From a virus (lineage: Duplodnaviria > Caudoviricetes), in IMG/VR virus record IMGVR_UViG_3300034079_000027, positions 6,800-70,799 of that record: a DNA stretch of 64,000 nt; one strand, written 5' to 3'. A program made the translations under genes and the position numbers. The notes under the pieces were generated by a model. That model worked only from the letters and a program-made list of their open reading frames with translations, was not told the origin of the DNA and made no database searches. Position 1 is the stretch's first letter. Each line of letters begins with the position of its first letter. Positions 3,374 through 59,888 of this stretch are shown here, piece by piece.

Positions 3374-3837
3374 GGAAAACGAAATCAGAGTATAACAAAA
3401 CTTGGGACGATAAAAATAGGGACAAGAAACAGACTATTGCCCAGAAATGGTATTCAATCCCAGAGAATAAAGAAAAAGCAAAAGCAGTTGCAAAGGCTCA
3501 ATATTGGGCAGACCCAGAGGCAGCTAAAAAGCGAACAATAGCGTACCAAAAGGCGCATAAAGCGAGAGTAGCTGAAAACGCTAAGATTCGCCGGGAGAGA
3601 AAGAAAAATGAAGATGCTGAAGCGTATAAAAAGCTAATGAGCGAACGGAACGCAAGGTATAGGGCAAAGGTGAGAAAAGAAAAAGGGTTGCCGGAGATTA
3701 AACCCCAGAACCCTAACCCTAACCCTAATGTAACCCCAAAACCTGTTCATGTAAGAATGACCGAAGAAGAGCGTCAGTTATCAATCTTGGCCCGGTTTGA
3801 ATCGCTTAAAGAAGTCATTAAGATGCTACGCTCATAA
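3370..3837 (+). CDS. Highly basic helical protein, probable nucleic-acid binder
   Basis: K/R-rich helical repeats like the N-termini of HNH proteins, but no HNH motif. Confidence 0.5.
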   Translation: MRKTKSEYNKTWDDKNRDKKQTIAQKWYSIPENKEKAKAVAKAQYWADPEAAKKRTIAYQKAHKARVAENAKIRRERKKNEDAEAYKKLMSERNARYRAKVRKEKGLPEIKPQNPNPNPNVTPKPVHVRMTEEERQLSILARFESLKEVIKMLRS

Positions 3838-5182
3838 CGGTCATAACTGGCATATCCCAAATTGCACGTTCTGAAGACTTCCTCATCATGATGTCTTTAG
3901 AGATATGTGCCGTGTACTTGTTAAAACTAATCTCCGTTGTGTGTCCGCTCATGCTCATGATTTCCTGCTTAGGCATACCTGAAATAAGGCAATTAGAGCA
4001 GAAAGACCGCCTACTGGTATGAGTTGTTATAAGCTTGTAGAATGGCTTAGTCTCTTCGATATTTTTGCCGCCTTTATGCTTTTCTAAGAGTATAGGCTCG
4101 TTAAACCCTGCGACACGGCCTAAAATCTTAATCTGTTCGTTGTAGGTCTTTTTAGTGATATTGTAAGGCCATGTGTCGCTCTCGTATAGATGTTTAATCA
4201 TATCGTGTGCCGGGATTCTAACTAGCCCGGTTCCCTTGTTGGAAATAGCAGAAACGACATATCTGTTTAAATCCTCACTCCATGTGATTTGCGTCTCTGG
4301 GTCGATGTTTAAAAAGTTGCCACCCCTTAACCCTGTCCAACAACCAATAATAGCCAATTTGCGGACGTTCTCTAATGAACGAACCATATCCGAAACGGAT
4401 TCCTTGTATTGGTTATCAGTCCAACCGGGTACGCCGTCTTTCTTGCCGCTATATTTGATAAAATCCTGCTTAGGGTTCCCAGAGGCCGTTATGCGCATAT
4501 TAAAGAGTTTTAAGAGTTGTTTTTCGTTCAGATACACATTGAATGCTTCCCGTCTTTTTTTCTTGTCAAAACGCAGATAATCGAGCCGTGTGTTAATCCC
4601 ATCATCGGTCGCTTTGTCTAATATCCGTTTAAGGTTGCTGAACATCTTTGCAATGTGGTTATCCCCTGAGTCTAGGGTGTCCTGCATATAGGTTAAAAAA
4701 TCCTCGTTAAACTTCCGGTCTATCTGTTCAAAGGTTAACTTAGGTCTGAATGTTTTAAGCATCCTAACGGTCGTCCTGAAGCTTGCCCAGTCCTTATTGC
4801 CTACCTTGCCTTTGTTGGCTTCCTTAAACGCAACAAACCTCTCGGCAAAGGTGAAAAACGGCGTACTGGTCGCTTTGGGTTCCGCTTTCTTGTTCGCAAG
4901 TTTCCGGGGTTTTAGCTTCTCGTTGATAAGTTGCGTGAATAGGTCGTTGTTGAGGTCGAACGGATTGTTCTCGTCGATCACATCGTTAGCCGCTTGACGA
5001 ATACTTAAAAGTTTTTTATCTATCGCAGGATTGGTGCAACTGGCTGCCTTGCCTCCAGTGAAAGAATTAGGGTCTTCAATGGTAATACCGGGGAAGAACA
5101 CTAACACATATTGCTTCCCATTGTATTGCTTTCTAAACCTCACTCTAACAGAGCCTCTGTCTAAAAGTAAATCAATTGCCAT
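3818..5182 (-). CDS. int: Tyrosine recombinase / phage integrase with SAM-like core-binding domain
   Basis: Catalytic set TGLRG, HTSRRSF, SGHT..FNKY; start moved to MAIDLL (5182) because a perfect TATATTTG -7 box lies at 5206-5213. Confidence 0.93.
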   Translation of the reverse strand: MAIDLLLDRGSVRVRFRKQYNGKQYVLVFFPGITIEDPNSFTGGKAASCTNPAIDKKLLSIRQAANDVIDENNPFDLNNDLFTQLINEKLKPRKLANKKAEPKATSTPFFTFAERFVAFKEANKGKVGNKDWASFRTTVRMLKTFRPKLTFEQIDRKFNEDFLTYMQDTLDSGDNHIAKMFSNLKRILDKATDDGINTRLDYLRFDKKKRREAFNVYLNEKQLLKLFNMRITASGNPKQDFIKYSGKKDGVPGWTDNQYKESVSDMVRSLENVRKLAIIGCWTGLRGGNFLNIDPETQITWSEDLNRYVVSAISNKGTGLVRIPAHDMIKHLYESDTWPYNITKKTYNEQIKILGRVAGFNEPILLEKHKGGKNIEETKPFYKLITTHTSRRSFCSNCLISGMPKQEIMSMSGHTTEISFNKYTAHISKDIMMRKSSERAIWDMPVMTVMSVAS

Positions 5183-5205
5183 GATCGTAAATTTTAATGT
5201 TGATA

Positions 5206-5213
5206 CAAATATA
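5206..5213 (-). promoter_or_regulatory. Bacteroidota sigma-A -7 element for int
   Basis: TATATTTG matches TAnnTTTG, 24 nt upstream of the int ATG. Confidence 0.7.
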
Positions 5214-5218
5214 ACTCT

Positions 5219-5472
5219 TTCGACCAACTTTCGACCAACTATATTGAAATTTCTTGCAATATGTGTTTGTTGGCTTATTTTCAAACAGTTTCAAAAATGT
5301 TCATAAAATGATAATACATAGCATATTAGTGTCAAAATATATCAAAAGGAGAGTTACACATATTGCCACCGCCAGACCCCAGCTGGGTCACACTTTCAAA
5401 CATTTCAAACCCTTGCAGCACTAGGCTTGCAGGGGTTTTTTGTTTGGTCATTCGACCAACTTTTCGACCAAC
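5219..5472. repeat. Candidate attP: TTCGACCAAC arm repeats flanking a tRNA-3'-end-like core and hairpin
   Basis: TTCGACCAAC at 5219, 5230, 5451, 5463; core GACCCCAGCTGGGTCAC 5375-5391; hairpin with T-run 5407-5441. Confidence 0.7.
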
Positions 5473-6612: not shown

Positions 6613-6683
6613 TCTAAATAGGGTGTTTGGTTTGAACCGCTAATATAAGTGAACAAATTCGATTTAGCAGCCTAAAAGAGGGC

Positions 6684-6711
6684 AAAAAAGCCCGGACAAT
6701 AATATCCGGGC
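6684..6711 (-). terminator. Rho-independent terminator
   Basis: Stem GCCCGGA/TCCGGGC followed by T6 on minus strand. Confidence 0.75.
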
Positions 6712-6740
6712 CACACACACACACACACTATTAACTGAAC

Positions 6741-6948: not shown

Positions 6949-7122
6949 TTAGTTAATTGTGGTTTTTGTTTCAATGATCAAAGCCCGATAAATCAGGATA
7001 ATTAGCGAACCTTGACCGAATAGAAACACGAACATATTAGGCAGGTTCAAATATAGAGTAAAAAAGCTAACTAGGACTACTAATAGCCCTAGTATGCCAA
7101 CAAAATGTATATTCCTGTTCAT
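6949..7122 (-). CDS. 57-aa two-TM membrane protein (not in ORF track)
   Basis: MNRNIHFVGILGLLVVLVSFFTLYLNLPNMFVFLFGQGSLIILIYRALIIETKTTIN fills the gap exactly. Confidence 0.6.
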   Translation of the reverse strand: MNRNIHFVGILGLLVVLVSFFTLYLNLPNMFVFLFGQGSLIILIYRALIIETKTTIN

Positions 7123-7124
7123 AA

Positions 7125-7337
7125 TTAGCTAATTATAGAAATCTGGCGTGAATAGGCACAATGGCCGTTAGCTAACATGAATACAAACATGTGTAGCTGA
7201 TCTAGTGCGACTTCAGTAATCAACTCAGTCTGGTGACCAGTTGCGGGTTCAATGCTTTCAATGTATGAAAGGGCAGGGGTATTTACTCCCCTGATCCCTT
7301 TAAACAGTACTTTCTGGCCTATCTTTATACGATCCAT
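7125..7337 (-). CDS. Hypothetical protein
   Basis: TAATG coupling to upstream gene at 7337. Confidence 0.55.
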   Translation of the reverse strand: MDRIKIGQKVLFKGIRGVNTPALSYIESIEPATGHQTELITEVALDQLHMFVFMLANGHCAYSRQISIIS

Positions 7338-8587
7338 TAGGCTATAAGTTTTTCGATTGCTGAACGTTTTGCAGTCGGGAATATCCAACCTGCGCCACAA
7401 TGTAATCTAAAGTTAAAACGACCGCCTAATGCCTTTAATTCGTCCTTAATAGGCTTTGTTTCTCCTATTACTGCGATAGCTTTCTCTGAGTATTCAATAA
7501 TCTGAATGTTTGCCTTTGGTTTTTCAAATAATTCATCCCATTCATCAATCTCCACTATTGCCTCTGGTTTAGGTTCTGGAAGTTCTGCCTCTTCGTGTCT
7601 GGCATGAGTGTATTTGTAAGTCTGTAAGATGTGACCGTCCATGATGATCGCTTCCCGGTCTTCATAATCTTCATACATGTCGATCATGCCGTTAAAATGC
7701 CCCTCACAAAAGGTATCAATAAAGGCTTCCAGTTCCTTAATTGGCTCCGGGGAGTAATAAACAACGTCCATAGAGTCGCCACCGCTGAATACGTCCGTTT
7801 TAACCTCGATTTTGGCGATTTGAAAGGATTTCATACAATGAGCCTTGATAATGTTGGTAGTTGTCCTGCGGTCGGCTCTAATGAACTGTGAAAGGTATTG
7901 CTTTCTTTCTTCTGCTTTAATTGCTGCCGCCTCGTCCTTAATCCTTCGCTCTTCTGCTTTCTTAACTGCTAAATCCTGAGCCTCGATCAACATGTTTGAT
8001 AATTGATCCTGATCAATGCCAAAGGATTGCATATTGTAACCCCTTTCAAAGTACATACCTATGCCGAACTTTTTGGAAATCGGTCTTAGATAGTCGTGCC
8101 TTTGAAGGTCTAAAGTATCTTTCTCGACACACCATACATTAGGGCCGAAACTAGACTCTTCAATCTTGTAAATGATCCAATTGTTGCCGTGATAACCTTT
8201 AGCCATGTTGCAATTGTCAAGAAAACAAATGTCGTACAGTTCGTAAACTTCATCCTTTACCTGATCTTCGGGTAATTCGTTTACTTTCTCGTCGAACGCT
8301 GCCAATCCTTTAAAATGTGCCTCCCTGATAACGTTCTCCGTTATTCTTAACTTGCCGTGATTGATCTTTAAGAAAGGCTCATCGCCTAAGATAGAACCGT
8401 AGTTAATACCCATCATACCAGAACCACTGGCGTTAACTGTAACCTTCCTAACTGTTGTTGTTAGGTTCCCGGAATAGCTTTTGTGTGTTGAAATGTCGAA
8501 CGTCTGGCCTTTCTCGGTGCGGATCGTCTGGGCCTCCCATCCGTCAAAGCCTTTCTTAACTCTCGTTTGAACTTCTTCAATTTTCAT
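7337..8587 (-). CDS. Polyvalent-type protein with LPD29-like domain and C-terminal YSEKAIAV..GGRFN..GWIF domain
   Basis: KTDVFSGGDSMDV..GHFNGMIDMY recalls LPD29; LRPISKKFGIGMYF and the C-terminus recall Bacteroides mobile-element 'fusion proteins'. Confidence 0.65.
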   Translation of the reverse strand: MKIEEVQTRVKKGFDGWEAQTIRTEKGQTFDISTHKSYSGNLTTTVRKVTVNASGSGMMGINYGSILGDEPFLKINHGKLRITENVIREAHFKGLAAFDEKVNELPEDQVKDEVYELYDICFLDNCNMAKGYHGNNWIIYKIEESSFGPNVWCVEKDTLDLQRHDYLRPISKKFGIGMYFERGYNMQSFGIDQDQLSNMLIEAQDLAVKKAEERRIKDEAAAIKAEERKQYLSQFIRADRRTTTNIIKAHCMKSFQIAKIEVKTDVFSGGDSMDVVYYSPEPIKELEAFIDTFCEGHFNGMIDMYEDYEDREAIIMDGHILQTYKYTHARHEEAELPEPKPEAIVEIDEWDELFEKPKANIQIIEYSEKAIAVIGETKPIKDELKALGGRFNFRLHCGAGWIFPTAKRSAIEKLIA

Positions 8588-8631
8588 CTTGTAGTTTGCC
8601 GAATATACAGTTGCCGCCTGTTTTAAATTTT

Positions 8632-8684
8632 AGTCTGACGCCTCCCGGCGTTTCGTCTCAATTTTCAGAGACTCCTCAGAGACT
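8632..8684 (-). ncRNA. Type I hammerhead ribozyme
   Basis: AGUCU CUGAGGA GUCUC(UGAAAAUU)GAGAC GAA ACGCC(GGGA)GGCGU C AGACU: full catalytic core, three 5-bp stems, GUC cleavage triplet. Confidence 0.88.
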
Positions 8685-8686
8685 TT

Positions 8687-8953
8687 CTATTGCTCTGGTT
8701 TCAAATAAACCCTATAAGGATTGCCTGTTTTCTTACTGACTCGGATATAGTACAGTTTGCCGTTAACTGACTCTCTAACGGGGTATTTATTGCCCTTAGA
8801 ATCAATGAATGTTTTACCCGTGTCTTTATCTTCAATCTTAACTTTAGATACCTGCACGGCTGTATAATTGCCCTGTGCGTCCTTAATAACCTTTGTCTGG
8901 CCAATGGCTCCCAGACTGAGCAGAACTAATGCAATAATGAGTAAGTTTTTCAT
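8687..8953 (-). CDS. Small secreted protein (Sec signal peptide, Gln at +1)
   Basis: MKNLLIIALVLLSLGAIG|Q then basic beta-rich domain. Confidence 0.7.
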   Translation of the reverse strand: MKNLLIIALVLLSLGAIGQTKVIKDAQGNYTAVQVSKVKIEDKDTGKTFIDSKGNKYPVRESVNGKLYYIRVSKKTGNPYRVYLKPEQ

Positions 8954-8969
8954 GATGTTGGGTTTTAAA

Positions 8970-9350
8970 TTATGCTACTCTGATAACGTCACATTTGTAA
9001 TACAATTCTCTTAAATCAATCCGGCCCCGAATCCCTGAGCTATAATAGCCCTGAGCCTTGAATCTTTCTCTCCATTGGATAAAAGCTCTGATTGCTGCGA
9101 TACATGAAGGATAACTTTTATCAAACTCGATGCTAAGACCGTCTGGGCTGATTACATCCCACTGTTGAGAATCGTTAGACTCTATTGGAGCAATGTGGGT
9201 AACTTCATGAATTGGCTCGTCTTCATCAAAATGATACTTCCATGGTTTGCTTTCAAACTTTTCAATGGCCTGTCCAATACTATCGGCTTCAATCGTTACA
9301 GTCGTGTAAGAATTAACAACCTTTCTAACTTCTAATTTGTACTTTCTCAT
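8970..9350 (-). CDS. Hypothetical early protein
   Basis: ORF in contiguous leftward operon. Confidence 0.6.
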   Translation of the reverse strand: MRKYKLEVRKVVNSYTTVTIEADSIGQAIEKFESKPWKYHFDEDEPIHEVTHIAPIESNDSQQWDVISPDGLSIEFDKSYPSCIAAIRAFIQWRERFKAQGYYSSGIRGRIDLRELYYKCDVIRVA

Positions 9351-9556
9351 GCTGCTTTGTATTTAGGTGTGTAAAAATATGATCCTTGATTCCTGTAACC
9401 CGGAGTAGTGCAACCTCTAATTTCTTTATTTAAGGTTGCTGATAGCTTTTCACAGAACCCTGCAAACTCTAGCCAGTCGTTAGCATTAACTGAATGCTGT
9501 TCTGTCTCGTCCCAGTTCTTCCCGGACTCTCTAATGGTGTAGTAAAAGATTTTCAT
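9347..9556 (-). CDS. Hypothetical early protein
   Basis: ATGA overlap with downstream gene. Confidence 0.55.
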   Translation of the reverse strand: MKIFYYTIRESGKNWDETEQHSVNANDWLEFAGFCEKLSATLNKEIRGCTTPGYRNQGSYFYTPKYKAA

Positions 9557-9560
9557 GTCG

Positions 9561-10097
9561 TTAGTTTAAAGGTTGTAAAATGAATTTATAAGGTGTTTTT
9601 CTCATGCACTGGGCAGTAACTCTAAAATCCTGATTACTGTTGTCAAAGCCTTCTATAATGCAATAGCCTAATACTTGCAGTCTCCCGATAATTATAGGAT
9701 CAACATCTGGTTGAATACTGTGCTTTGTCCTGAATATTTCCGAATCAGCATCATTTAAACAAACTGTCGGAAACTGTTTCGTTCCTAAATCCTGATTGCT
9801 CACTTTTGCATCATTAAATGCCTGTTCATGCTTCTTAGGATCAATTATCCTTGCCCGCTCTGCTTTGAGATCGTTTAATTCGATTCTCAACGCCCTTAAT
9901 TGCGGCTTTGCAGGTTCGCCCAGATAATAAGCAACCTTTCTCCAGTCTCTCTTCTCTTGGTCTTCTATTGTCTCCTGAAGGTCAGTAATACTTAATCGCA
10001 AAGCTTTCATTGCTTTTGTCGTCTGTGCCTTGTAAATGGTCAGGTTGCTGTAAACTTTACCCATATACTCGCTTTTGATGTGTGTGATTGTTCCCAT
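9561..10097 (-). CDS. Hypothetical early protein
   Basis: 178-aa ORF. Confidence 0.6.
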   Translation of the reverse strand: MGTITHIKSEYMGKVYSNLTIYKAQTTKAMKALRLSITDLQETIEDQEKRDWRKVAYYLGEPAKPQLRALRIELNDLKAERARIIDPKKHEQAFNDAKVSNQDLGTKQFPTVCLNDADSEIFRTKHSIQPDVDPIIIGRLQVLGYCIIEGFDNSNQDFRVTAQCMRKTPYKFILQPLN

Positions 10098-10107
10098 TGT
10101 CTTAGTT

Positions 10108-10350
10108 TTAAAAGTTCATGTTGATCCATGCGGTGAATGCTTCGGATTGTGTTAACTCGCTGTTGATCCAGATTTGATGGATTTCTGCAATGTTTTGGTC
10201 TGCTTCCGATCCTTGTGCAAAATAATCTTCACTCTCTACCGATACAAACGATAAACTGGTGTTGATTTCTCCGTTCTCATACTTTCCATTGAGCCAACTC
10301 TCGTTTAGCTCGGATAAAACCTTGTTTGAATTTTCTGTTAAGTCTTTCAT
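10108..10350 (-). CDS. Acidic hypothetical early protein
   Basis: Start set to 10350 because a promoter-like TATCTTAG sits at 10401-10408. Confidence 0.55.
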   Translation of the reverse strand: MKDLTENSNKVLSELNESWLNGKYENGEINTSLSFVSVESEDYFAQGSEADQNIAEIHQIWINSELTQSEAFTAWINMNF

Positions 10351-11169
10351 AATCAGTGTGTTAAGTGTGTTTTGTGTTAAAATCTGTCCTTTCATGTGTG
10401 CTAAGATAACATCAAATATGATGTAATCCTAACTTTATGTCGTTTTTTTTGGAAAAAAGTGGTTTAGATCAAAATTTGTGTGTGTGGCCCACTGGCTCCG
10501 CTCCGTCTTCTCATTGCTGTAAATGCCTGTAAATCAATGCTATTTCATAGTGAACAATAACATATTTGCAGTAAAAACAGACAAAAAAGGAGACAAATTT
10601 AGCTAACTGATTGTGAATCAATGTGTTTTGCGTTCTTTCTAGTTAACAGAATAACAGTTCTAGGACAAACGACTGAAATTCTTTTGTGATGATCTGGGAG
10701 CCGGGAGAGAAGGTAACGGGGAGAGCAGGACACGAATGTAGTAATTTTCTGGCCCATTATTCTCTTCCTTGCCTGTTTTTTGCCCGTTTTAGCCTTGATT
10801 TGTCGATTCGTGACAGTTTCCCCCTTCCTTTGCATTGCGTCATCGTAGCGTTCCATTCACCCCTCACACCACCCGCCACCACACACACAGCACCCCACGA
10901 AGCCGGGGGGGGTCGGTTTTGAGTGAATTAAGCTAAATGTCTTACGCCCTCCCCAAAAAACCAAGGGACTTGAACTTCCCTTTACATAATAACACGATTT
11001 TCCCAACTTCTTAGCAATAAATGAGTTAGTCAGGAGTGTCCACGGGGCGGAGACAAAGAAAAGAGGTTGTTTTTTTTTAATTAGACAATTTAAAACAAGC
11101 TACTACCAGAAACCGTTGGTAACGCTTTTAAGTAGTGTAAAATATCGAGGTTTATCGAGAATCTCGCAG

Positions 11170-18061: not shown

Positions 18062-21000
18062 ATGGCAGAAACTACACCTTTAACCGCACCCGTTGTACCA
18101 ACCACGCCAGAAACGCCATTTGTAAATAGTTATAAAATTGATGGCAAGTACTATGATGTACCGACGACTGACGACTCGCTTTTTCAGGCCAATATGGACA
18201 TGTCTAAAGCGGAGAAGGTTTATGGGTTTATGCAGGATGGGAAAAAATATCGTGTACCTGAAGCCGACTTAAAAGTGTTTCAGGCCAACATGCCAAAAGC
18301 AAAACCTTTTCAAAATTACAATTTCTCAGCGGTAGGGGCAGACTTCCCCACAGATCAAGCAAAACCCCAAGAAGAAGAAGGTTCGTTTTTTGGAAATCTG
18401 GGGCATGATTTTATGACCGGGATTAAAAAGTCGGGCTATGAAATTGGAAGAGCGGTAGAAGACCAGTCGTTAATGATTAACGACATGTTTAAATCTATCT
18501 CCGACAATCCCGCTTGGCAAAATTACTGGAATAAGGAAGAAGCCCGACTCAATGAAAATATTGCAGGATTAAAAGACTGGGATAAAACCATTGGGGATGC
18601 CAAGGGTGGAGTAGGTGGATTTATAGGAGGTATGCTTCCTATGGTAGGTTTAGCCGCAGCAGCTATTGTAACCAAAAGCCCCACCGTGGCTATGGGTGTT
18701 ACTGACCTATTTGCTGAAATGGGTTACGGCGGTGGTATTGATGCCTACGATAAATTTAAGGCAGAAACCGGAGGAAGTGTTGATCCTGCAACAAGAACCG
18801 GAGCGGGATTATTATATGGGGCTGCAATGACATTACCTATTGCAGGAACAGTGGGCAAAATGATGCCAAAAGGCATATTACAAAAGTCCATTAAAACGAC
18901 ATTAGACGCAAACCCTCAATTTGTAGAAGTCGCCGGGAAGAAAGTTTTTGAGCAGTTTTTAAAAGAGCAGCCGACACTTGCCCGGAATTTAATGAATAAA
19001 GCAGTAACCGGGGCCGGACACGGTATGGCAACTATGACTGCAATGGAAATGTCGAAACTGGGAGTTGATAAATTCCTTATCGGGAAAGATGTCTCCGTAA
19101 AAGATGTAGTCAGCACGTTAGGACAGTCCGCTTTATCCGGGGCTTTCTTTGGGCTTGCGCTTGCCCCGTTCTCAGTGATGAGTCAAAACTCGACAAACCG
19201 GATGCGTCGTGAAAAAGAAGGTTCGGTAACAGTATCTTACGACCCGGAAACCGGAGAGTCGGTAGAAATCATTGCCGGGAAAGATGGAGGTTACCAAGGC
19301 TTAACCCCTTCAGGCAAATTGGTTGACTTAACCGAAGCGCACTATAAGAATGCGTTTACCATGCCAACCGAACTTTTCAACCAGACTACTAAAGAATTTC
19401 AGCAAAATAAAGCCGTTGCTCCAGATATTGAACGCCAAGCCTACGAGGGAAATATCACGAACGCCCTGACCAGACTTGGAGGCGAAAACGGCGTTGTTCA
19501 CTCGTATATCGACGATAACGGAAATACCCAGTATATTTTAGGCAGAAATAAAGACGGCCAAATTATCGCCTCCGATATTAACGGATTGGAAACAGTAATC
19601 AATCCAAAGGATGTAGAGAAAGCAAAATCAGCCGATGTAGGCACGATCCGGGATGCTTTAATGAAAAGGTATGACGAGAAAAATAACCCACCGTCAGACC
19701 CTTGGGAAGCTGTCTATCAAGAACAATTACCGCCACTCGACCCAAGACAACAAACAGAGGCCGACGCAAAGGCATACGCCCAAGAAATAGCCAATAAGGA
19801 CGATGGTATGATAACCACTGTTCAGGAAATTTCAGAAGACAATGCCACCGCCGGGAAAGTCTGGTATGTAAAAAAAGGAAACCCCGGACAATTGGATAAT
19901 GGTAGCGTTCGGGTTTTTGATGATACCGGGGAAGAGAAATTTTTAACCCGTAAGCAGCTAGCCGGAGAACCACAGGAAATGACCCAAGAGGATTTTGTCG
20001 CATTTAAGCTTCAGGAGTTCGACCAACAGCAGGCCGAGCAACAAGCTATGCAACAAAACCAGATGATTTATAACGGTAAAACCTTAACCCGGCAAGAGGG
20101 GGCGTTTCAGGATGAAGAGCAGGAGGCATGGTTTGATGAAAACAACCAACCCGTAAATGTTCCGACCGAAATTGTTCAGGCATGGGAAAAGAAAAAAGCC
20201 GGGGAACCACAGGGAGAAACCCCTAATATCGTTACCCGCATCTATAACGGTAAAGAATATCAGACTACTAAAAACCCAGACGGAAGTCATACACTTCCCG
20301 ATCAAATGGGATTACCTGATATACAGAAATTAAGGTCGGACGTTGATATTGAAACCAATGGACAAGCAACAGTTATTGAGACTCCGGTGGAAGGTCAAGA
20401 CCCGACTCAGCCGATGTTTACAGCGTCGATTGTTCCGGTACAAAATTTAACCGAAGAACAGAAAAATCAGTGGATGGAAGACCGCTTGATTAATAACCCG
20501 GACGTAGCCGCCAAAGCCGAAGAAGCCGAAAAACAAAAACTGGAAGACGAAAAAAAGGCCAAAGAACCCGGTTATACTTACGAGGGTGAAGACATAAGCC
20601 CGGAAGAAGCCGAAGCCATTATCAACCTTGCAGGAAAAAGTAAGGACAAATCCGTTATGCAAGGGTTGGAATACCACAACGATCCAAAACTGGATAAGTT
20701 GATGGAACACCATTTCCCTAAACCAAAACCAAGCTATACTAAAGGTAAAGATAAACTCACCGCTATTGAGGCCCGTGTATCTATACGCATGGCTAAAACT
20801 CCGACCGACCTCAACCAGATTAAGATTGAAAACGACGAAGAGTTGCAGGCTGTTTGGAATGAAAAAGCCAAAGCCTTAACCCCTAAAACGGTAAACTTTT
20901 CAGAGCCGGAAGGTGAAAAAGTTCCCGAAACTGAGCCGGAAAACGCTGATAATCCGTTTAGTGTATTATTTAACGACGCAGAAAATCAACAAAAAACAGA

Positions 21001-24000
21001 ACTAGACAATGAAAAACCTAGCGACGAACAACCAGTACCAGAAGTACCAGAAGGAGGAACAACCGAACAAAAAACTGAAACCGGGACAAAGCCGGACGAA
21101 ACTGAAAATGAGCCGGAAGGAACAGAAAAAGAAGTTTTAAAAACAGAAGCTTCCCAATACCTTGATTGGCCTGATTATACCATCATTCAGAAAGGAACGG
21201 AAAAGGTTGTCTCTTATTTCGGTACAGAAAAAGAGCCGTTTATCGTTTTGCTTTCTGGTAAAATGCCGGGGAAAAATGGTGCGCAAGTATTTAAAGTATG
21301 GAGCCGGATTAAAGAAATACAAGGTTCAGTAGACTGGGGCAGAATAAGTATAAAAGAGCCGGAGTATGAGCGGCTTTCTAAAGAACTAGAGGAAAAATTA
21401 AACCCAAAGGAAACCGAATTAAGCAAAAACAATCAGCCAGACAGTAAGTTACCCGATAATTCCGGTTCTGAGTTAAGCAAAGAAACCCCGGAACAAGTTC
21501 AACGCAAACACCTGAACGCTATTCAGGATGAGTTCGGGGAAGCAGCAAGAAGTCTCGCAAAGAATTTTGTTGAAAAAAGCGGCATAGAAAACCCCAACTT
21601 CAACAGGATTATTGAAACTGCACGACAAATTTTAAAGCTCGAAAAAGTAGGCAGTACTTATGAAGGTGCAGCCGCTATATCTGAGGCAATGCAATACGAG
21701 TTCGGTTATGTGGACAATTTTGAAGACCTACGCAATGCTATAAATAAAGGTGGGTATGCCAAGAATAAACCCTCGATTGATCGGATGTTGGAGGTAGGGG
21801 TAAAAGTGCCGCAGGATATTTTAGATATGAATACTCCCCAAACCCCGCTCGATAAAATAACCGCAGAGGGCAAAAAGAAGGTAGCCGAAAAGAAGGAAGC
21901 AAACGGGGATGTAAAATTAAAATCAGAACCATACTCGACGCTCGATATAGACCATGAAACGCCGAGTGTCGTAGTGGCAAAGCAGATTAAAGCAGACTTA
22001 CTGCCTTTCTCAAAAGCACTGGCTAAAGCGTTAGGATTTGATCATGGTGACGATGGTCACGGGAAAGTCCAATATTCAAGCGTAAATCTACCTCCTGCGG
22101 GTGGTGAGGCTACAATGCACTTCTGGAACCCTGAAAACCCAGACTGGGGGATTATGGTTCGACTTGCTTATGAGCCAGAGTATGACCGTGGTGGTGGATA
22201 TAACAATTATAAGATAAAAAATCCTTTCTGGAGGGTAGTTCGCAGAAAAGATAAAACCGGGGGATTAATGAATAATTATTTTCCGGGAGATATATCTGCG
22301 TCTGATTTAGCTAAAAGTATGCTGCCTATTTATGGGAAAGCCGCAGGAAGGTTTGGTCTTCCAAAGGAGGATAAACCCCAAGTTCAAGAGCCACCAAAGC
22401 CCGAACTGAGCGAAGTGGAAAAGCGCAAAGCAGAACTTATCGCCAAACTTAAAAACCTACTTCCACCGGATAACACAGCAAGCGAACCCCCCGCTGAATA
22501 CGGAGGGAAACCGCAACTCAACTTCGAGATTATGAACCTTGGGTCTGAACTGGCAATGATCCATATTCAGACCGGGAAAATAAAGTTTGCAGATTTCGCC
22601 AAAGAAATGGTGAAAGATTTGGGAAACCCGGTTAAACCTTACCTGAAATACTTTTACAACGCAGCCCGTAACCTTCCGGGAATGGATGAGTTCGACGACC
22701 AAATGGACGACGTTCGGGAAGTGAATAAGATGGATATTGAGCAAGCGTTGGCTCCAGTGGAAATAAATCATCAGAAGGAAGCCGAACAAGCGATTGACAA
22801 AAACCAAGCCCCGGCACAAAAACCGGATGAGAATAATTTACTCGGACAACTCGATAAGCTTAACCCGACCAAAGCCCCAATGAATACAACCAAATACACA
22901 GGTTTAACCATTGAGACGGTATCGGAAAAAGCGTTCGTTGTTAAAGGAAATACCAAACCATTTGCCGACGATTTTAAAACAGCCGGGGCAATCTGGATGA
23001 ATAAACATCAAGGTTGGATGTTCCCTAAGTCGAGACAGTCGGAAGTTGAGTTAAAATTTGGAATAGCCGGATCAACAGAAATAGCATACCCGCCAAATAA
23101 AAAGAAACTGGTGAGTAGTATCATGGCTAAATTAGCTGAAGGGATAAAAATTACCAACGGGCCTGCTTTAACCGCAATGGCAACAGAAGCCGGATTACAG
23201 GCAGGAGTTGATTACAAAAGCGTGAAAGAGCTGTATGATATTGCCGGATCAGCCCTTAACCAATATATTTTATCTAAACCAGAGTTTAACCCGGCAGGGA
23301 AAATCCCGATGGAGGTTAAAGCGATAGTAGAAAAACTGAACGCCCTTCAGGATTTACTCCCAACAGAAACCCAACGTTCGGCAGAACAGGTAGAATTACA
23401 GCAATATTCAACACCTCCTGCGTTTGCGTTTGTAGTTAACTGGATCGCACAGATAGACCGATTTGAAAATGTATTGGAACCGTCGGCAGGAGAAGGAAAT
23501 ATAGCTGTTTTTGCCCGTTTAACAGGCGCAAATGTAATCGCCAATGAAATTGACGACAATCGTTTAATCCTACTTAGAATGCTTGGATTACGGGCCGTAA
23601 AGAGCGATGCAAAGCATGTACATTTAAACCCTGCTTTTAGAAACGAACGGATTTCAACTGTTGTTATGAATCCCCCTTTCTCTAAAGATATTGCTCTCGG
23701 CAATAAGATGGATTTACATGCAGCCGAAAAACATATCGAATCGGCTCTGGCTAAACTTTTGCCCGGAGGCCGCTTAGTTGCAATCGTAGGGCGTGGAATG
23801 AGCATGAACAGCCCTACCCATAAAGCATGGTGGGATAAGATATTACAGAACGCTACTGTCCGTGCCAATATCGCTATCAGCGGCGATGCCTATAAGAAAA
23901 AAGGTACTTCGTTTGATAACCGATTGTTGGTTATCGACAAGCTCGGTGCGAGCGTTGAAGCCCCATTTACCGCAGAAGTTGAGAACTACGATGAACTTGT

Positions 24001-27000
24001 CGATGTATTAAAACATATTGTACCAAAAAACCGTATATTTAAACCAAGTATATTAACCGATGAAAACACTACTCGAAACGGTCAAGGACAAGCTGATAAT
24101 GCTAACGGGGGATTATCTGGAACCAATGGTGGCAAGCCTAATGATGGTCGTACTGGATCAGGTGAAAATCAAGGAGCCGGGAATGACACAAATGGAGGAC
24201 ACGATAACTTATCTCCACAGAAAGACAGACCGGGAAATTCTGGAGTATCTAATGGAAACTCAGGACGATCAGGCGGAGGCAGAGGCTCTTCTGGAGGAAA
24301 GACTTCAACCACTAACAACGGCGGAAGAAATAGCGGAGGTTCTGCTTCTGGACATCCTGTGGGACGCAATGAAGGAACATCAGGAGACTCCAATACTGTA
24401 AGTAAATTTGAACCAAGCAAACCGCTTGAAGTAGAATATGTAGATCGCACACTTGATAATTCAGAGCAGTTAGGTTACGACAGGTACACCCCTGAAATCA
24501 AAGTAGTCGGATCACAACCCCACCCAACACTATTAGTTGAAAGTACTGCGATGGCCTCGGTTAATTTACCGAAAAGCAAATACAGGCCGCATCTTTCTCC
24601 CACTGTAATTAAATCCGGGGCATTAAGCGATGCTCAACTGGAAGATGTTATTCTCGCCGGAGGATCACATGTCCAAGTATTACCGTCAGGTTACCGAAGA
24701 GGTTATTTCTTAGGCGGGGGGACAGGATATGGCAAAGGGCGAACAGTTGCCGCTATCATCATGGACAACTTCAATCAGGGAAGAAAAAAAGCAGTCTGGC
24801 TATCGGCTAATGAAAAAGCACACTACGAAAGTATAAACTTTTGGGATGCCGTAGGTGGGGATAAAAAACTCGCCTTTTCACAAAAGAACCCGCACAATCG
24901 CATAGCACAAAAAGAAGGCTTATTATTAACTACCTACGGAACATTAAGGACAAAGTTCGACCCTCGCAAAAGCTACGACGATGATGTAAATTTCTGGAAG
25001 GGAAAACCAGAAAATAGGATGCAGCAAATTGCACAATGGTTGGGGCCAAATTTTGACGGCGTAATAATCTTCGACGAAAGCCACAACATGTCGAACGCAG
25101 AAGCCCAAAAGGGCGACAGGGGCATGAAGAAAGCCTCTTTAATGGCGTTGGCAGGAATTGAATTGCAAAAACTCTTACCGGATGCACGTATTGTTTACGC
25201 CTCAGCTACCGGAGCCACAGAAGTAAGCAACCTAGTTTATGCACAACGCTTGGGGCTATGGGGTGATGGAACGCCTTTTAACGACTCAAAGGACTTCGTT
25301 CAAGCCGTACAGAACGCAGGGGTCGCAGGGATGGAAATAATCTCGAAAGACTTAAAATCTATGGGTTTATACACCGCCAAACAACTCTCGTTTGAAGGAG
25401 TAGCCTATGAAACCCTAGAACACAAATTGCTACCCATGCAGACAGAACTCTATAACCAAGTTGCAGATGCTTGGCAAATGGTGTTACACCACATGGACGA
25501 AGCCATTGACCTTAACAATACCAGTTCACAAGCGAAAGCGGCAGCAAAAAGCCAATTCTGGGGAGCGCACCAACGCTTTTTTGGTCAGATTATAATGACC
25601 ATGCAGATGCCAACCGTTATAAGGGACATTGAAAAATGTCTTTCAGAAGATAAATCGGTTGTAATACAATTAGTTTCGACCAATGAGGCCGCTACAAACA
25701 GGGCGTTAGCTGAAGCAAAGGCAAACTTAGCTGAAGGCGAGGAACTTGATTACGAGGATTTGGATTTATCGCCAAAAGGCACACTCTTAGAGTACCTTAG
25801 AAATAGTTTTCCTATCCATGCTTTTGAAGAGGTGGAAGACGATAACGGCAATGTCGTTAAACGATTAATGCGTGATGATTTAGGACAACCAATAGTAAAC
25901 CCGGCAGCACTGGCATTAAGGGATAAACTACTGGCAAAACTCGACAAAGAGCTTACTTTACCGGAAAGCCCTCTCGATATATTAATCAACCATTTTGGAG
26001 TGGATAATATCGCCGAAGTAACCGGGAGAACCAGACGGGTTGTAAAAGTAGAAAACGAAAAAGGAGAGTTTGTAAAAGTAGAACAAACCCGAACAAAGTC
26101 ACACGCCGCACAGGATAAGGATGATTTTATGGACGCAAAAAAGCGTATTCTCGCCTTTTCAAAATCGGGAGGAACAGGTGCATCTTATCATTCGGATTTA
26201 AGCCGTGAGAATCAACAGCAACGAGTTCACTTTGTAATTCAGACCGGGTGGAAAGCGGATGATGCGGTTCAGGGATTTGGACGGTCACACCGGAGCAACC
26301 AACGTATAGCCCCTATCTTTAAACTGGTAACCACGGATTTAAAATCGCAGAGACGTTATTTGTCCTCAGTGGCCCGAAGGTTAGATCAACTTGGAGCATT
26401 AACCAAAGGACAACGCCAGACTGGGGGACAAGGTATTTTGGACGGGTCGTTTAATCTTGAAGGACAGTACGCCAAACAAGCATTATTCCAGTTTTACAGA
26501 GCCGTAGAAGCCGGAGAAATACCCGGCGTTGATATGGAGGTTCTTGAAAACCAAATGGCTCTTAAAATATACACCGAAGATCAGGACGGGAATATGAAGT
26601 ACAACGAAAACGTGGTTTTCAATACTACGATGTTCCTGAACCGAATCATGTCGTTAAGGGTCGATTTGATGGACAGTGTATTTGATGGGTTTATGGATTT
26701 AATGGGCAAAGAAATTGACCGGGCTAAACAGCATGGCACTTTTGATGAAGGGATTCAAGTTGTTAACGCATTTAAAACAACGCTTGTAGATCAAAAGGTG
26801 ATTTACACCGACGAAAATACTGGGGGCAAAACCTACCTTACTACCATTGAATTGGAAGTTGAAAACACCCGCAAGGAGTGGGGAGATATTGAATTCAGGG
26901 CTAAGTATAAAAGCGACCAATTCAAAGGATATTATCAGGAAACTAGCTCAGAGCGGATATATGCTGTTTTTGCACAGCCGGAAATGACAGCGGACGGTAC

Positions 27001-30000
27001 ACGTAAATTAAGGACAACCCGGCAAAGTGTGGTAGCTGAATCGCAAATATCGAGTGACGACCTGAAAAACAAGTACGTTAAGATTGATAATAAAGCGATT
27101 GCCGAACGATTATGGAACGCTGATTTTGACGCTTACCCTGCCACCAGAAAAAGAGTAGATCACATTGTTAAAGGCTTAATTCTGCCAATCTGGAACCGAT
27201 TACCCAACAACATCAATGTTCGCAGATATGTTGACGAAAATGGTAACGCACACCTTGGGCGGTACTTTAATCAGCGTGATGCAGAAGAAATCCTCAATAA
27301 GTTTAAAATTACCAGTTCAAACCGATTTACCACACATCAGGCAGTAACCGCACTGGAAGACGGGGGAAAAGTAAAATTGGCTAACGGCTTTGAATTGGTG
27401 AAAACCAAGTATCAGGGATTACCTGTTTATATGATTAAAAACGTAAACTCATGGTCGGATCGTGACCGTATGAGTAGAGCCGGAGCAAATTTTGCCGTTA
27501 CCAGTGCTATGTCACAATCAGGATTTTATTATCTTCCTGCCGAAATCGCAACAGAGGGGATTGATAAAATTATTCAACTGTACAACTCCCCAATTACCAG
27601 AGTTACAGATAGTGAGGATAACGCTCAGGCTCCTGCCGAAGGAAATAATATTGCGGAGGAACCTTTAGCCGAATACAAGCGTACAAACGACCATGAAGAA
27701 AATCAAGCCCAAGAAGGTAGTTCAATCGACACCCAACTCAACTGGAGCGAAGACGTACCCTATCGTAGAAACCCAGAGTTCAGTAACAGCACAAGTGCCA
27801 GCGACCTACAATGGGAAGCCCTGTATAACCACAAACCAGACGACGGGATAACCTATGTCGAACGGCAGTTAAACGAACAAAAACACCTGACTTTTGGAGG
27901 CTCAAAGCTTTCAGGCCCGACGAAAATAACCTCGCCGTGGGACGTAGCCCATTTATTTAAAAACCTTGAATCAGCCCCATCAGAAAATGCCTTTGCTGTA
28001 CTTCACAACGAGGACGGCACATATAAGGCACTATACCTTTCAACAGGTACAAACAAAGCAACCCAAGTTGATACCAAACTTATAATTGCCGCAGCAAAAG
28101 AGTTCGGGGCTAAAAGAGTAACGTTTGTACACAATCATCCTTCAGGAAATTTACTAGCCTCTGAAGCAGATAAGGCTATTCACGGGAAATTACTACACGC
28201 CCTAGACCTCTCTGGTGTAAACCTGAATCCTTCCATTATTATTAACCTTGACTCCGGGAAGTTTGCCCAATTTACGGCAAGCGACCAAGACGAATTTAAC
28301 CATCAAGGCCGGATGAAAAACGAGGCTTTTGAAGTCAACGTGTACCAGTTTGACAGGCAGGAGCTATATATCCCATCAACAGAACGAGGAAAGGTTGTAA
28401 AATCGGGCGATGTTGCTGCATTTTTAAGTAACCAAAAAAGGGGCATCGGCAATAAAATACAAGCCTTAATCCTTGACAACGGCAATAACATTAATCGTTA
28501 CGTGTTGCTCGATGGAAATTTAACGACTGACGAATTGGCTAAAGAATTGCTTTTCGAGGTCGGGAAATACGGAGAGAAGGTTGTGCTTGCATCGAACTTT
28601 ACAATCCCGGAAATAGGAGCGATTAAAAAAGCTTTGAAACTGGTTGATGCAGACCTCGTTGATGTTCTGGAAATTAAACAGGACGACGACATTATCAACA
28701 ATTACAAAAGCTTTGCAGACGAAGGTTTGCTGTGGGATTCTGAAACCCCATACGGGAAAGATAAGCCCGGATTATGGGACTTAATGGACGATGCAAAAAG
28801 ACGGGTCGCCTATAAAAAATTCAATAACAAACCAACCGAAGTAAATGACTCAGGAGTAAAACCTGTGTTTGTTACCGACTTCCTTAAAAAAGTAACCGCC
28901 AGATACAACCGGGAACGAAAAGACCGACGGGCAATGAAGGAAGTTATTCAGGGGATGCGTGATTTTTACCAAGACAAAAACCTGCCTATCCGCCGGATGC
29001 AGGAACTTGTACAAAAACGTGGGGGCGAACTCAAAGACAATATGCAGCCTTTCCGTGACATAGCAAACTCATTTGGACGACTGGAAACCCTTCATGATAA
29101 TTTCACTGAGGATCGCATGGTTCCGATTTTAAAGACTATCGCAGAGATTGGTTATACCGGGATGGACAGAGAAGTTGTTTTGCCTTACGTTATCGCAAAA
29201 CACACCCCGGAACTTAACCAGTATATGCGCAACCGGGATTTTGAAAAGTGGAATAAAAAACACCAATCGGACTTTATAAAATGGTGGGAAACCCATCAAG
29301 AAACGACCAAAGCTCAACAGGACGAAAAATGGGCCGAACTGGAACAAAAAAAGGAAGACTACTGGAATAAGCTGCAAAAAACAGACTATGCAGGGATTAT
29401 GCCTTTAGATGTTGAGAATGGTTTTAAAGACGATCCCGACGGGCTTGCTAAGGCTATCGTACATGATTTTGAAACCGTATTGCCTCAGAATTTAATAAAT
29501 GAGCTTTGGGACAACCTAAAGGGTGCATCTTCGGATATTGTTGGGGCATGGCACAACGGGAAACAAATTACAGCAGACGAGGCCGATGAATACCGTTCAC
29601 GCTACAATTATTACGTTCCTCTCCGGGGATGGAGAGAAGGCGCAGCCCAAAGCCTTGCCTATGTCAAAGGGAAAGGATTCGGGAAGTCGCTACAACACGC
29701 TGAAGGTAGAAAATCACTCGCAGCAAACCCACTTGCTTATTTGCAGCACACCGCATTTCAGGCAATCACAGAACAGGTTACCAACGAAGTAAACACCTCT
29801 TTATATAATCTGGTGACTAGAAACTATGCAGGTAACCGGGATATTTTCAGCCTTAAAAAAGCGTATTACGTGCTAGTAGAACATGCCAACGGCGAAGAAG
29901 AGTGGGAATTAAGCGTTGATCCAATTACGGACAAGCTTGTAAAACCTGCCCCGGAGATGTTTGCTGAAGGTCGTGCAATCACAAAGCTGTACAACAGTCA

Positions 30001-59842: not shown

Positions 59843-59888
59843 GTTGTTCCTGCCGGGGGAATCGAACCCCCGGTTAAACCATGCAGGA
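59843..59888 (-). ncRNA. tRNA-like minihelix (acceptor stem + T-arm, no D or anticodon arm)
   Basis: UCCUGCA UGGUUUAACC GGGGG UUCGAUU CCCCC GGCAGGA A CAA. Confidence 0.5.

Follow-up and report, generated by a model that had tools for sequence, protein, structure and literature searches.

Genes and features at the locus

The window, by which we mean the whole stretch of 64,000 nucleotides analysed here, is part of a 70.8 kb phage genome, recorded as a virus contig that has direct terminal repeats. On its minus strand, in the gap between two co-directional genes, lies a 53-nt type I hammerhead ribozyme motif (8632..8684), recognised from its sequence, from its minimum free energy (MFE) fold, by a hammerhead descriptor and by a covariance model from which it had been left out, and conserved in a close relative. 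The gene upstream of the motif (8687..8953, minus strand) codes for an 88-aa protein of phrog_16207, a family of unknown function. A preliminary interpretation made from the letters alone, here called the sequence-only reading, had described this protein as secreted; the N-terminus does resemble a signal peptide, but the basis for the description is limited to that. The gene downstream (7337..8587, minus strand) codes for a 416-aa protein with a weak LPD29-like domain and hundreds of metagenomic homologues. Its own LPD29 match is below threshold (E 0.0035, 18.4 bits against a cut-off of 27), but PF18847 is present in several of its homologues.

The motif starts 2 nt past the TAG stop codon of ORF 8687-8953(-). 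Its end lies 44 nt, and the predicted cut 49 nt, before the ATG of ORF 7337-8587(-), in agreement with the distances and the position between co-directional genes that had been given before. The downstream leader that would remain after the predicted cut (8588..8636, minus strand, 49 nt) is A-rich and contains no Shine-Dalgarno motif.

Both genes belong to a series of small genes, on the minus strand and of unknown function, that extends from about 11915 down to 5332 and ends at a tyrosine integrase gene with a Phage_int_SAM_5 domain (3818-5284, minus strand), which is located about 2 kb downstream of the hammerhead-adjacent gene block on the same strand. The term early operon, used in the sequence-only reading, is looser than this evidence. 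The presence of an integrase at the end of the small-gene block indicates that the phage is probably temperate. The genome also encodes a portal protein, a large terminase and a DnaB-type helicase, and a polyvalent protein of 4617 aa (18062-31915, plus strand) in which an Sbno-type helicase (AAA_34 + Helicase_C_4), a RadC-like JAB domain and LPD38 are combined; this ORF lies just upstream of the portal gene, and about 2100 of its N-terminal residues have no Pfam match. The message downstream of the hammerhead had been called a polyvalent-protein message, a name that belongs to the product of this plus-strand ORF, since the 416-aa protein stands alone.

A Shine-Dalgarno-like core precedes 3 of the 73 ORFs of the genome, the leaders of which are A-rich and G-poor, and the named homologues of the downstream protein come from Ferruginibacter and Tenacibaculum. 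From the scarcity of Shine-Dalgarno motifs, the A-rich leaders, the type of integrase and these homologues we infer that the host is probably a member of the Bacteroidota. Scans for promoters and terminators (sigma-70 type, and Bacteroides-type TTTG/TAnnTTTG) gave matches not above chance, none of them placed informatively. Two other sizeable non-coding gaps are found in the minus-strand block, at 10396-10598 and 6613-6740; neither contains a known RNA family, and the latter includes a terminator-like hairpin (6712-6689, minus strand). Elsewhere in the window, a G/C-rich hairpin resembling a tRNA T-arm (59846-59888, plus strand) gives a weak match to the Rfam family Plastid-ycf2 (26.6 bits, E 0.31), and ARAGORN found no tRNA in the window.

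Sequence and fold of the hammerhead element

Read on the minus strand from 8684 to 8632, the letters are exactly those claimed for an intact type I hammerhead. Stem I (AGUCU/AGACU) pairs 8684-8680 with 8636-8632 and is followed by the core segment CUGAGGA (8679-8673). Stem II (GUCUC/GAGAC), which begins with the G10.1-C11.1 pair, pairs 8672-8668 with 8659-8655 and is closed by the 8-nt loop II UGAAAAUU (8667-8660). The second core segment, GAA (8654-8652), leads into stem III (ACGCC/GGCGU; 8651-8647 with 8642-8638), the A15.1-U16.1 pair of which adjoins the core and which carries a GGGA tetraloop (8646-8643). C17 (8637) closes the series. An A at position -1 (8685) and an A at position +1 (8631) flank stem I.

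The three stems are 5, 5 and 5 bp long and all Watson-Crick, and the core is canonical throughout (CUGAGGA, GAA, A15.1-U16.1, G10.1-C11.1, and C at H17). The junction follows the order of the hammerhead class, with stem I open, as defines type I. Furthermore, the MFE fold of the isolated 71 nt is the same three-way junction (-18.1 kcal/mol), so that sequence and fold both confirm the full set of core residues and the three stems. For the isolated region, the fold z-score is a modest -1.6, and stem I is weak, with two G-C pairs among its five. The scissile bond is predicted, by hammerhead consensus, 3' of C17 (8637) and 5' of A1.1 (8636), that is at 8636..8637 on the minus strand, the same position after GUC that had been proposed from the letters.

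Expectation by chance and the Rfam models

We ran our own descriptor, which covers the three hammerhead topologies (type I, II and III), on the 70.8 kb genome, where it found a single site with stems of at least 4 bp, namely 8632..8684. The same search on 300 dinucleotide-shuffled genomes gave 43 matches with stems of at least 3 bp, two with stems of at least 4 bp, and none in which all stems reached at least 5 bp. A type II match with 3-bp stems elsewhere in the genome was dismissed, as 0.14 such matches are expected per genome by chance. About 250,000 windows were scanned, however, so that rarity of the motif is not sufficient by itself, and evidence of conservation was therefore sought.

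A search with the Rfam hammerhead models had been suggested as a check on the motif, and on this point the expectation was not borne out. At gathering thresholds, no Rfam 15 family matched anywhere in the window, and at E <= 1 no ribozyme of any class, twister, pistol and hatchet included, was found in it. When the limit was relaxed to E <= 10 on 8400-8900, the sole hammerhead match was to RF00008 (Hammerhead_3), at 19.1 bits against a gathering score of 48.5, and this match was mis-registered, with the wrong helices aligned. The reason lies in the models, which do not cover the compact phage subfamily described below, and not in an error in the motif: the score below gathering threshold is a limit of model coverage and reflects the absence of no defining biochemical feature. 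It also follows that standard annotation would miss the element. A megablast search of 7000-10500 against a phage collection gave no match.

Conservation in a close relative

The closest homologue of the downstream protein, at 94% identity, is encoded on L161, a 2.6 kb JGI contig, in which the hammerhead is kept at the same place. Inside the 53 nt, L161 differs from the window by one change, G to C at N7 (8675). N7 is the sole position of the hammerhead core that is free to vary. Outside the motif, A at 8685 is replaced by U, so that stem I gains a sixth pair; the upstream stop codon TAG is replaced by TAA; and the 44-nt spacer downstream of the motif contains five changes. Contigs of three other sequencing runs carry the spacer changes of the L161 haplotype and those of a fourth run are identical to the window. 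There are, therefore, two haplotypes across several samples, and the ribozyme is intact in both of them.

Two of the five spacer changes affect both sides of one pair in a candidate 4-bp leader hairpin (ACAG...CUGU; 8607-8621, minus strand) located 15 nt after the cleavage site. In the L161 haplotype this pair is swapped from A-U to U-A (8619 T>A and 8609 A>T on the plus strand), and the two changes occur together in the contigs of the three other runs. As two haplotypes are known, the double change could be a coincidence, and we regard the support that it lends to the hairpin as weak. Contig ends near the motif were considered as a possible signal of cleavage and rejected: they are unitig ends, and the run labelled as RNA-Seq is probably DNA.

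A compact type I hammerhead subfamily

Relatives of the element were searched for with a pattern made of the core and the stem II of the window, with the loop free and with stems I and III left unspecified. The pattern retrieved 44 viral contigs and 8 prokaryote contigs, the latter being Clostridia-type MAGs, one cyanobacterium and one deltaproteobacterial MAG. The retrieved motifs comprise 54 of type I and 4 of type III topology. Stems I and III are in register in 43 of the 44 viral contigs, where they form from differing, covarying sequences.

A family alignment of 62 elements was fitted to the model (A4), an earlier MAFFT alignment (A3) being dropped since it aligned stem III poorly. Pairing cells make up 89.9% of the A4 alignment, compared with 68% in shuffles and 34-41% when the partner columns are slid. 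Changes on both sides are found in 13 of the 15 pairs, and the pairs of stem I vary among CG, UA, AU and GC. A covariance model built from this alignment, with both the window and L161 left out, gave the window element a score of 62.1 bits (E about 5e-18) and no further match in the window or the genome; the descriptor and this model agree that the 70.8 kb genome has no second hammerhead copy. The conservation of stem II is partly built in, since the family was fetched with the stem II of the window itself, but further copies in the same loci vary this stem as well (GCCUC/GAGGC, GUCCC/GGGAC and GGCU/AGCC).

We define from these sequences a compact type I subfamily in which stem II is GUCUC/GAGAC and its loop UGNRAAUU, stems I and III covary and are 4-8 bp long, and stem I has an A on either side (-1 and +1). 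The window element fits this definition, with a stem II and a loop II that are the same as in many of the members. It is a member of a widespread compact subfamily of phage and prophage type I hammerheads, and this membership, together with the conservation in L161, argues that the motif is not a product of chance. The subfamily can be retrieved by a simple pattern, with dozens of copies in viral contigs and in prokaryote contigs of several bacterial phyla, and as it is missed by the Rfam models, counts of phage ribozymes that are based on Rfam are too low. As a separate observation, a GC-rich viral contig of 6.6 kb (L174:2991-6428, plus strand) carries nine or more type I hammerheads at intervals of about 400-600 nt; each of them directly follows a stop codon, and their 3' tails are complementary to loop II and covary with it.

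Position of the subfamily relative to genes

Layout was measured on 51 distinct type I members, the window element included. Stem I starts a median of 1 nt past the stop codon of the same-strand ORF that precedes it, and within 5 nt of that codon in 40 of 48 cases. From the end of the ribozyme to the next start codon the median is 40 nt. Stem I is preceded by A at -1 in 45 of the 51 members and followed by A at +1 in 44 of them. The window element obeys this rule throughout (2 nt, 44 nt, A at -1 and A at +1). Furthermore, the hammerheads found near homologues of the downstream gene are all on the strand of the gene. Such a strict layout offers a concrete and testable handle on the effect of the ribozyme on neighbouring genes.

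Candidate contact between loop II and the 3' tail

A tertiary contact is required for fast hammerhead cleavage at the Mg2+ concentrations of the cell. Pseudoknot-type tertiary contacts are found in about 40% of hammerheads (Perreault et al. 2011, PMC3088659). In the window, the candidate for such a contact is the tail sequence AAUUU (8625..8629, minus strand; +3 to +7 after stem I), which could pair with AAAUU in loop II (8664-8660). Across the family, the longest Watson-Crick run that loop II can form with the initial 12-15 nt of the tail has a mean of 2.96, compared with 2.41 +/- 0.08 in shuffles of the members' own tails, and none of 500 such shuffles reached the family mean. Among the members with other loops, 10 of 20 have a run of at least 4 bp, with clear covariation (UUGGC/GCCAA, UGACC/GGUCA). 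The signal is weaker in the UGNRAAUU subgroup, to which the window element belongs (2.96 against 2.61 in shuffles and 2.70 with reversed tails).

The candidate pairing in the window consists of 5 bp, all of them A-U and identical in L161, and consequently it shows no covariation. We give roughly even odds to a loop II-tail contact in this element. If the contact is real, the functional element reaches to about 8625, beyond the coordinates noted earlier.

Distribution across phage loci

Homologues of the locus among viral contigs were not found with a single-protein search and were retrieved with an alignment-based one. In the orthologous loci with 39-59% protein identity (L001-L005 and L162-L164), there is no hammerhead upstream of the gene, which means that the downstream gene does not need one. 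In the opposite direction, what an unrelated viral contig (L189) has in common with the window genome is a stretch of only 61 nt, 87% identical, that spans the hammerhead and the A/U-rich 3' tail; over 13 kb there is no protein-level similarity. The 44 hammerhead-bearing viral loci have no genes in common with the window genome (tblastx E <= 1e-8). The element has been gained or lost independently of the phage backbone, whether by lateral transfer, under strong convergent constraint, or both.

Several loci with LPD29-type genes contain self-cleaving ribozymes on the gene strand, at varying distances from that gene, and in L050, L003 and L034/L035 these are located between small genes. L050 has a type I hammerhead and three twister-P3 ribozymes; the hammerhead, which was found by the descriptor, has no Rfam match at E <= 1, while the three twisters of the locus score well. 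L003 carries same-strand twisters, with twister-P3 and a sub-threshold twister-P1-like match, L034 and L035 carry a type III hammerhead, and type I hammerheads are present in L084, L087 and L089. The twister-P3 ribozymes of L050 and L003 score 58-62 bits, above the gathering score, and the ribozyme sites in the two loci are L050:267-337, 1081-1148, 3764-3830 and 2286-2339, and L003:1542-1602 and 1859-1928. A fixed link between the hammerhead and the LPD29 gene was considered and rejected: the ribozymes are zero to three genes away, which points to a link with small accessory gene blocks and not with the downstream gene.

Proposed function and alternative explanations

Taken together, we consider it likely that the element is a genuine type I hammerhead, apparently catalytically competent, that cuts a shared minus-strand mRNA between two phage genes. 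We infer that it is transcribed, that it cleaves in vivo and that it affects expression, along the following lines. The element would be transcribed on the minus strand within the run of small co-directional genes. Stems II and III, being local hairpins, would form once transcribed, and stem I would close the junction next, probably helped by the contact of loop II with the A-rich 3' tail. The RNA would then cleave itself after C17, between 8637 and 8636. As a result of the type I topology, the whole body of the ribozyme is expected on the upstream fragment, so that the message for the 88-aa protein would end in the entire folded ribozyme with a terminal 2',3'-cyclic phosphate. The message for the 416-aa protein would begin with a 5'-OH, followed by five nucleotides of stem I and the 44-nt A-rich leader. 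With the two genes physically separated, their decay and translation could differ: the 3' end of the upstream RNA would be structured, and the cut would give the downstream RNA a defined leader close to its 5' end, a feature that may be of importance where the host makes no use of Shine-Dalgarno pairing.

The same distribution data could also be read as those of a correctly folded but functionally neutral passenger, which spreads laterally and persists in a tolerant intergenic gap. The patchy occurrence, with hammerhead-free orthologous loci at identities as high as 56-59%, the stretch shared with L189 in the face of dissimilar proteins, and the absence of shared genes from the 44 viral loci would all be expected of a passenger, and such ribozymes are especially common in selfish elements (Perreault et al., PMC3088659). 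Nevertheless, the strict placement kept by the family, directly behind a stop codon, some 40 nt ahead of a start codon and on the coding strand, suggests a role in expression, and the core has remained intact, the only internal change in L161 being a neutral one. We therefore regard a neutral passenger as unlikely.

The layout itself invites a further proposal, namely that the ribozyme is a translation sensor instead of a constitutive cutter, with cleavage or re-ligation gated by translation of both neighbouring genes. Its basis would be the flush upstream stop codon, the A at -1 and +1, and the putative contact of loop II with the beginning of the downstream leader. Stem I and the core would be hidden under a ribosome that terminates on the upstream gene, and a ribosome loading on the 5'-proximal leader, which lacks a Shine-Dalgarno motif, would compete with the loop II-tail contact. 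We put this forward as a speculative and rather improbable variant.

Cleavage could be conditional in a simpler manner, if a helix formed with the end of the upstream ORF blocked folding, so that ribosomes on this ORF would decide whether the RNA is cut and cutting would report its translation. Such a helix can indeed be drawn between the last codons of the upstream gene (CCAGAGC) and the 5' strand of stem I together with core positions C3-G5. In a 131-nt context, the MFE structure contains the competing helix (-25.2 kcal/mol, against -22.2 kcal/mol for the best hammerhead fold), with a stem I probability below 0.01. The helix is also present in L161, and both competing strands would lie beneath a ribosome that terminates at the stop codon, which is 2 nt from the start of the ribozyme. 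However, L161 is too closely related for covariation of the helix to be assessed, and nearest-neighbour models leave out the tertiary contacts that stabilise the active fold. The stem I probability of the window element is also low with shuffled flanks (0.14), as stem I is intrinsically weak, and across 50 family members it is 0.47 with native upstream flanks and 0.42 with shuffled ones (Wilcoxon p = 0.25). Native flanks thus interfere no more than shuffled flanks do; the competing helix was rejected as a feature of the family and is treated as incidental, and control of cleavage by it is quite improbable.

Finally, a chance look-alike, or a plain structural element without catalysis such as a stabilising cluster of 3' hairpins, would fit the modest fold z-score, the lack of an Rfam hammerhead model at threshold and a scan of hundreds of thousands of windows, in which some perfect minimal motifs are expected by chance, but it is extremely improbable in view of the 300 shuffled genomes without a match in which all stems reach 5 bp, the 62 bits given by the leave-out family model, the neutral or stem-extending changes in L161, and the dozens of unrelated phages that have the same core, stem II and loop II together with covarying stems I and III.

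Comparison with known hammerheads

It is explicitly acknowledged that hammerheads of type I are characteristic of bacteria and their phages. In phages and prophages, hammerheads have been known since 2011 (Perreault et al. 2011, PLoS Comput Biol, PMC3088659; reviewed in PMC6765202), and prophage hammerheads cleave in vitro and in vivo within polycistronic RNAs (PMC3088659). Processing of polycistronic mRNA is the standard hypothesis for their function (PMC3088659, PMC6765202). The proposal of the sequence-only reading, a split mRNA with a 5'-OH on the downstream message and uncoupled stability or translation, corresponds to this hypothesis and is compatible with the layout of the window element. 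Bacterial hammerheads near integrases were described in the 2011 work (Perreault et al. 2011, PMC3088659). With these published examples the window element shares the core, the three-way junction, its encoding in phage DNA and its place on the coding strand, in a gap between co-directional genes; with the prophage cases it further shares a nearby integrase, a possible pseudoknot between loop II and the tail, and a proposed role in mRNA processing. The flanking genes are different, and the window genome has a single hammerhead whereas the published examples form clusters of two or three that flank genes. The layout of the window element (start directly behind the stop codon, an A on each side of stem I, loop II UGAAAAUU) is not spelled out in the 2011 text (PMC3088659), and its stem II and loop II sequence does not appear in the portion of the supplementary text of that paper that was available to us.

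Among the Rfam families, RF00163 (Hammerhead_1) is of the same class as the window element, with the same core consensus and the same topology with stem I open, but its gathering score is not reached; RF00008, the family of the mis-registered match, is likewise of the same class and has the same core consensus. Unlike the type I hammerheads of eukaryotic repeats, the window element has short, capped stems I and III and no internal loop in stem I. The related loci that are punctuated by ribozymes (L050, L003 and L034/L035) contain several of them on the same strand, in contrast to the single one of the window phage. In engineered insulators of the RiboJ type, a hammerhead placed upstream of a coding sequence removes the upstream RNA and leaves a short, defined leader with a 5'-OH. 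By analogy, the window element also lies upstream of a coding sequence, but it is natural and of type I, and the ribozyme would remain mostly on the upstream fragment.

These comparisons place the element as a further, well-supported example of the known phage hammerheads, ordinary in kind. It adds one well-supported hammerhead to a class for which the role in phage biology is so far hypothetical and, being present in a single copy, in contrast to the clustered hammerheads published before, it provides a clean test bed for the comparison of a wild type with a core mutant.
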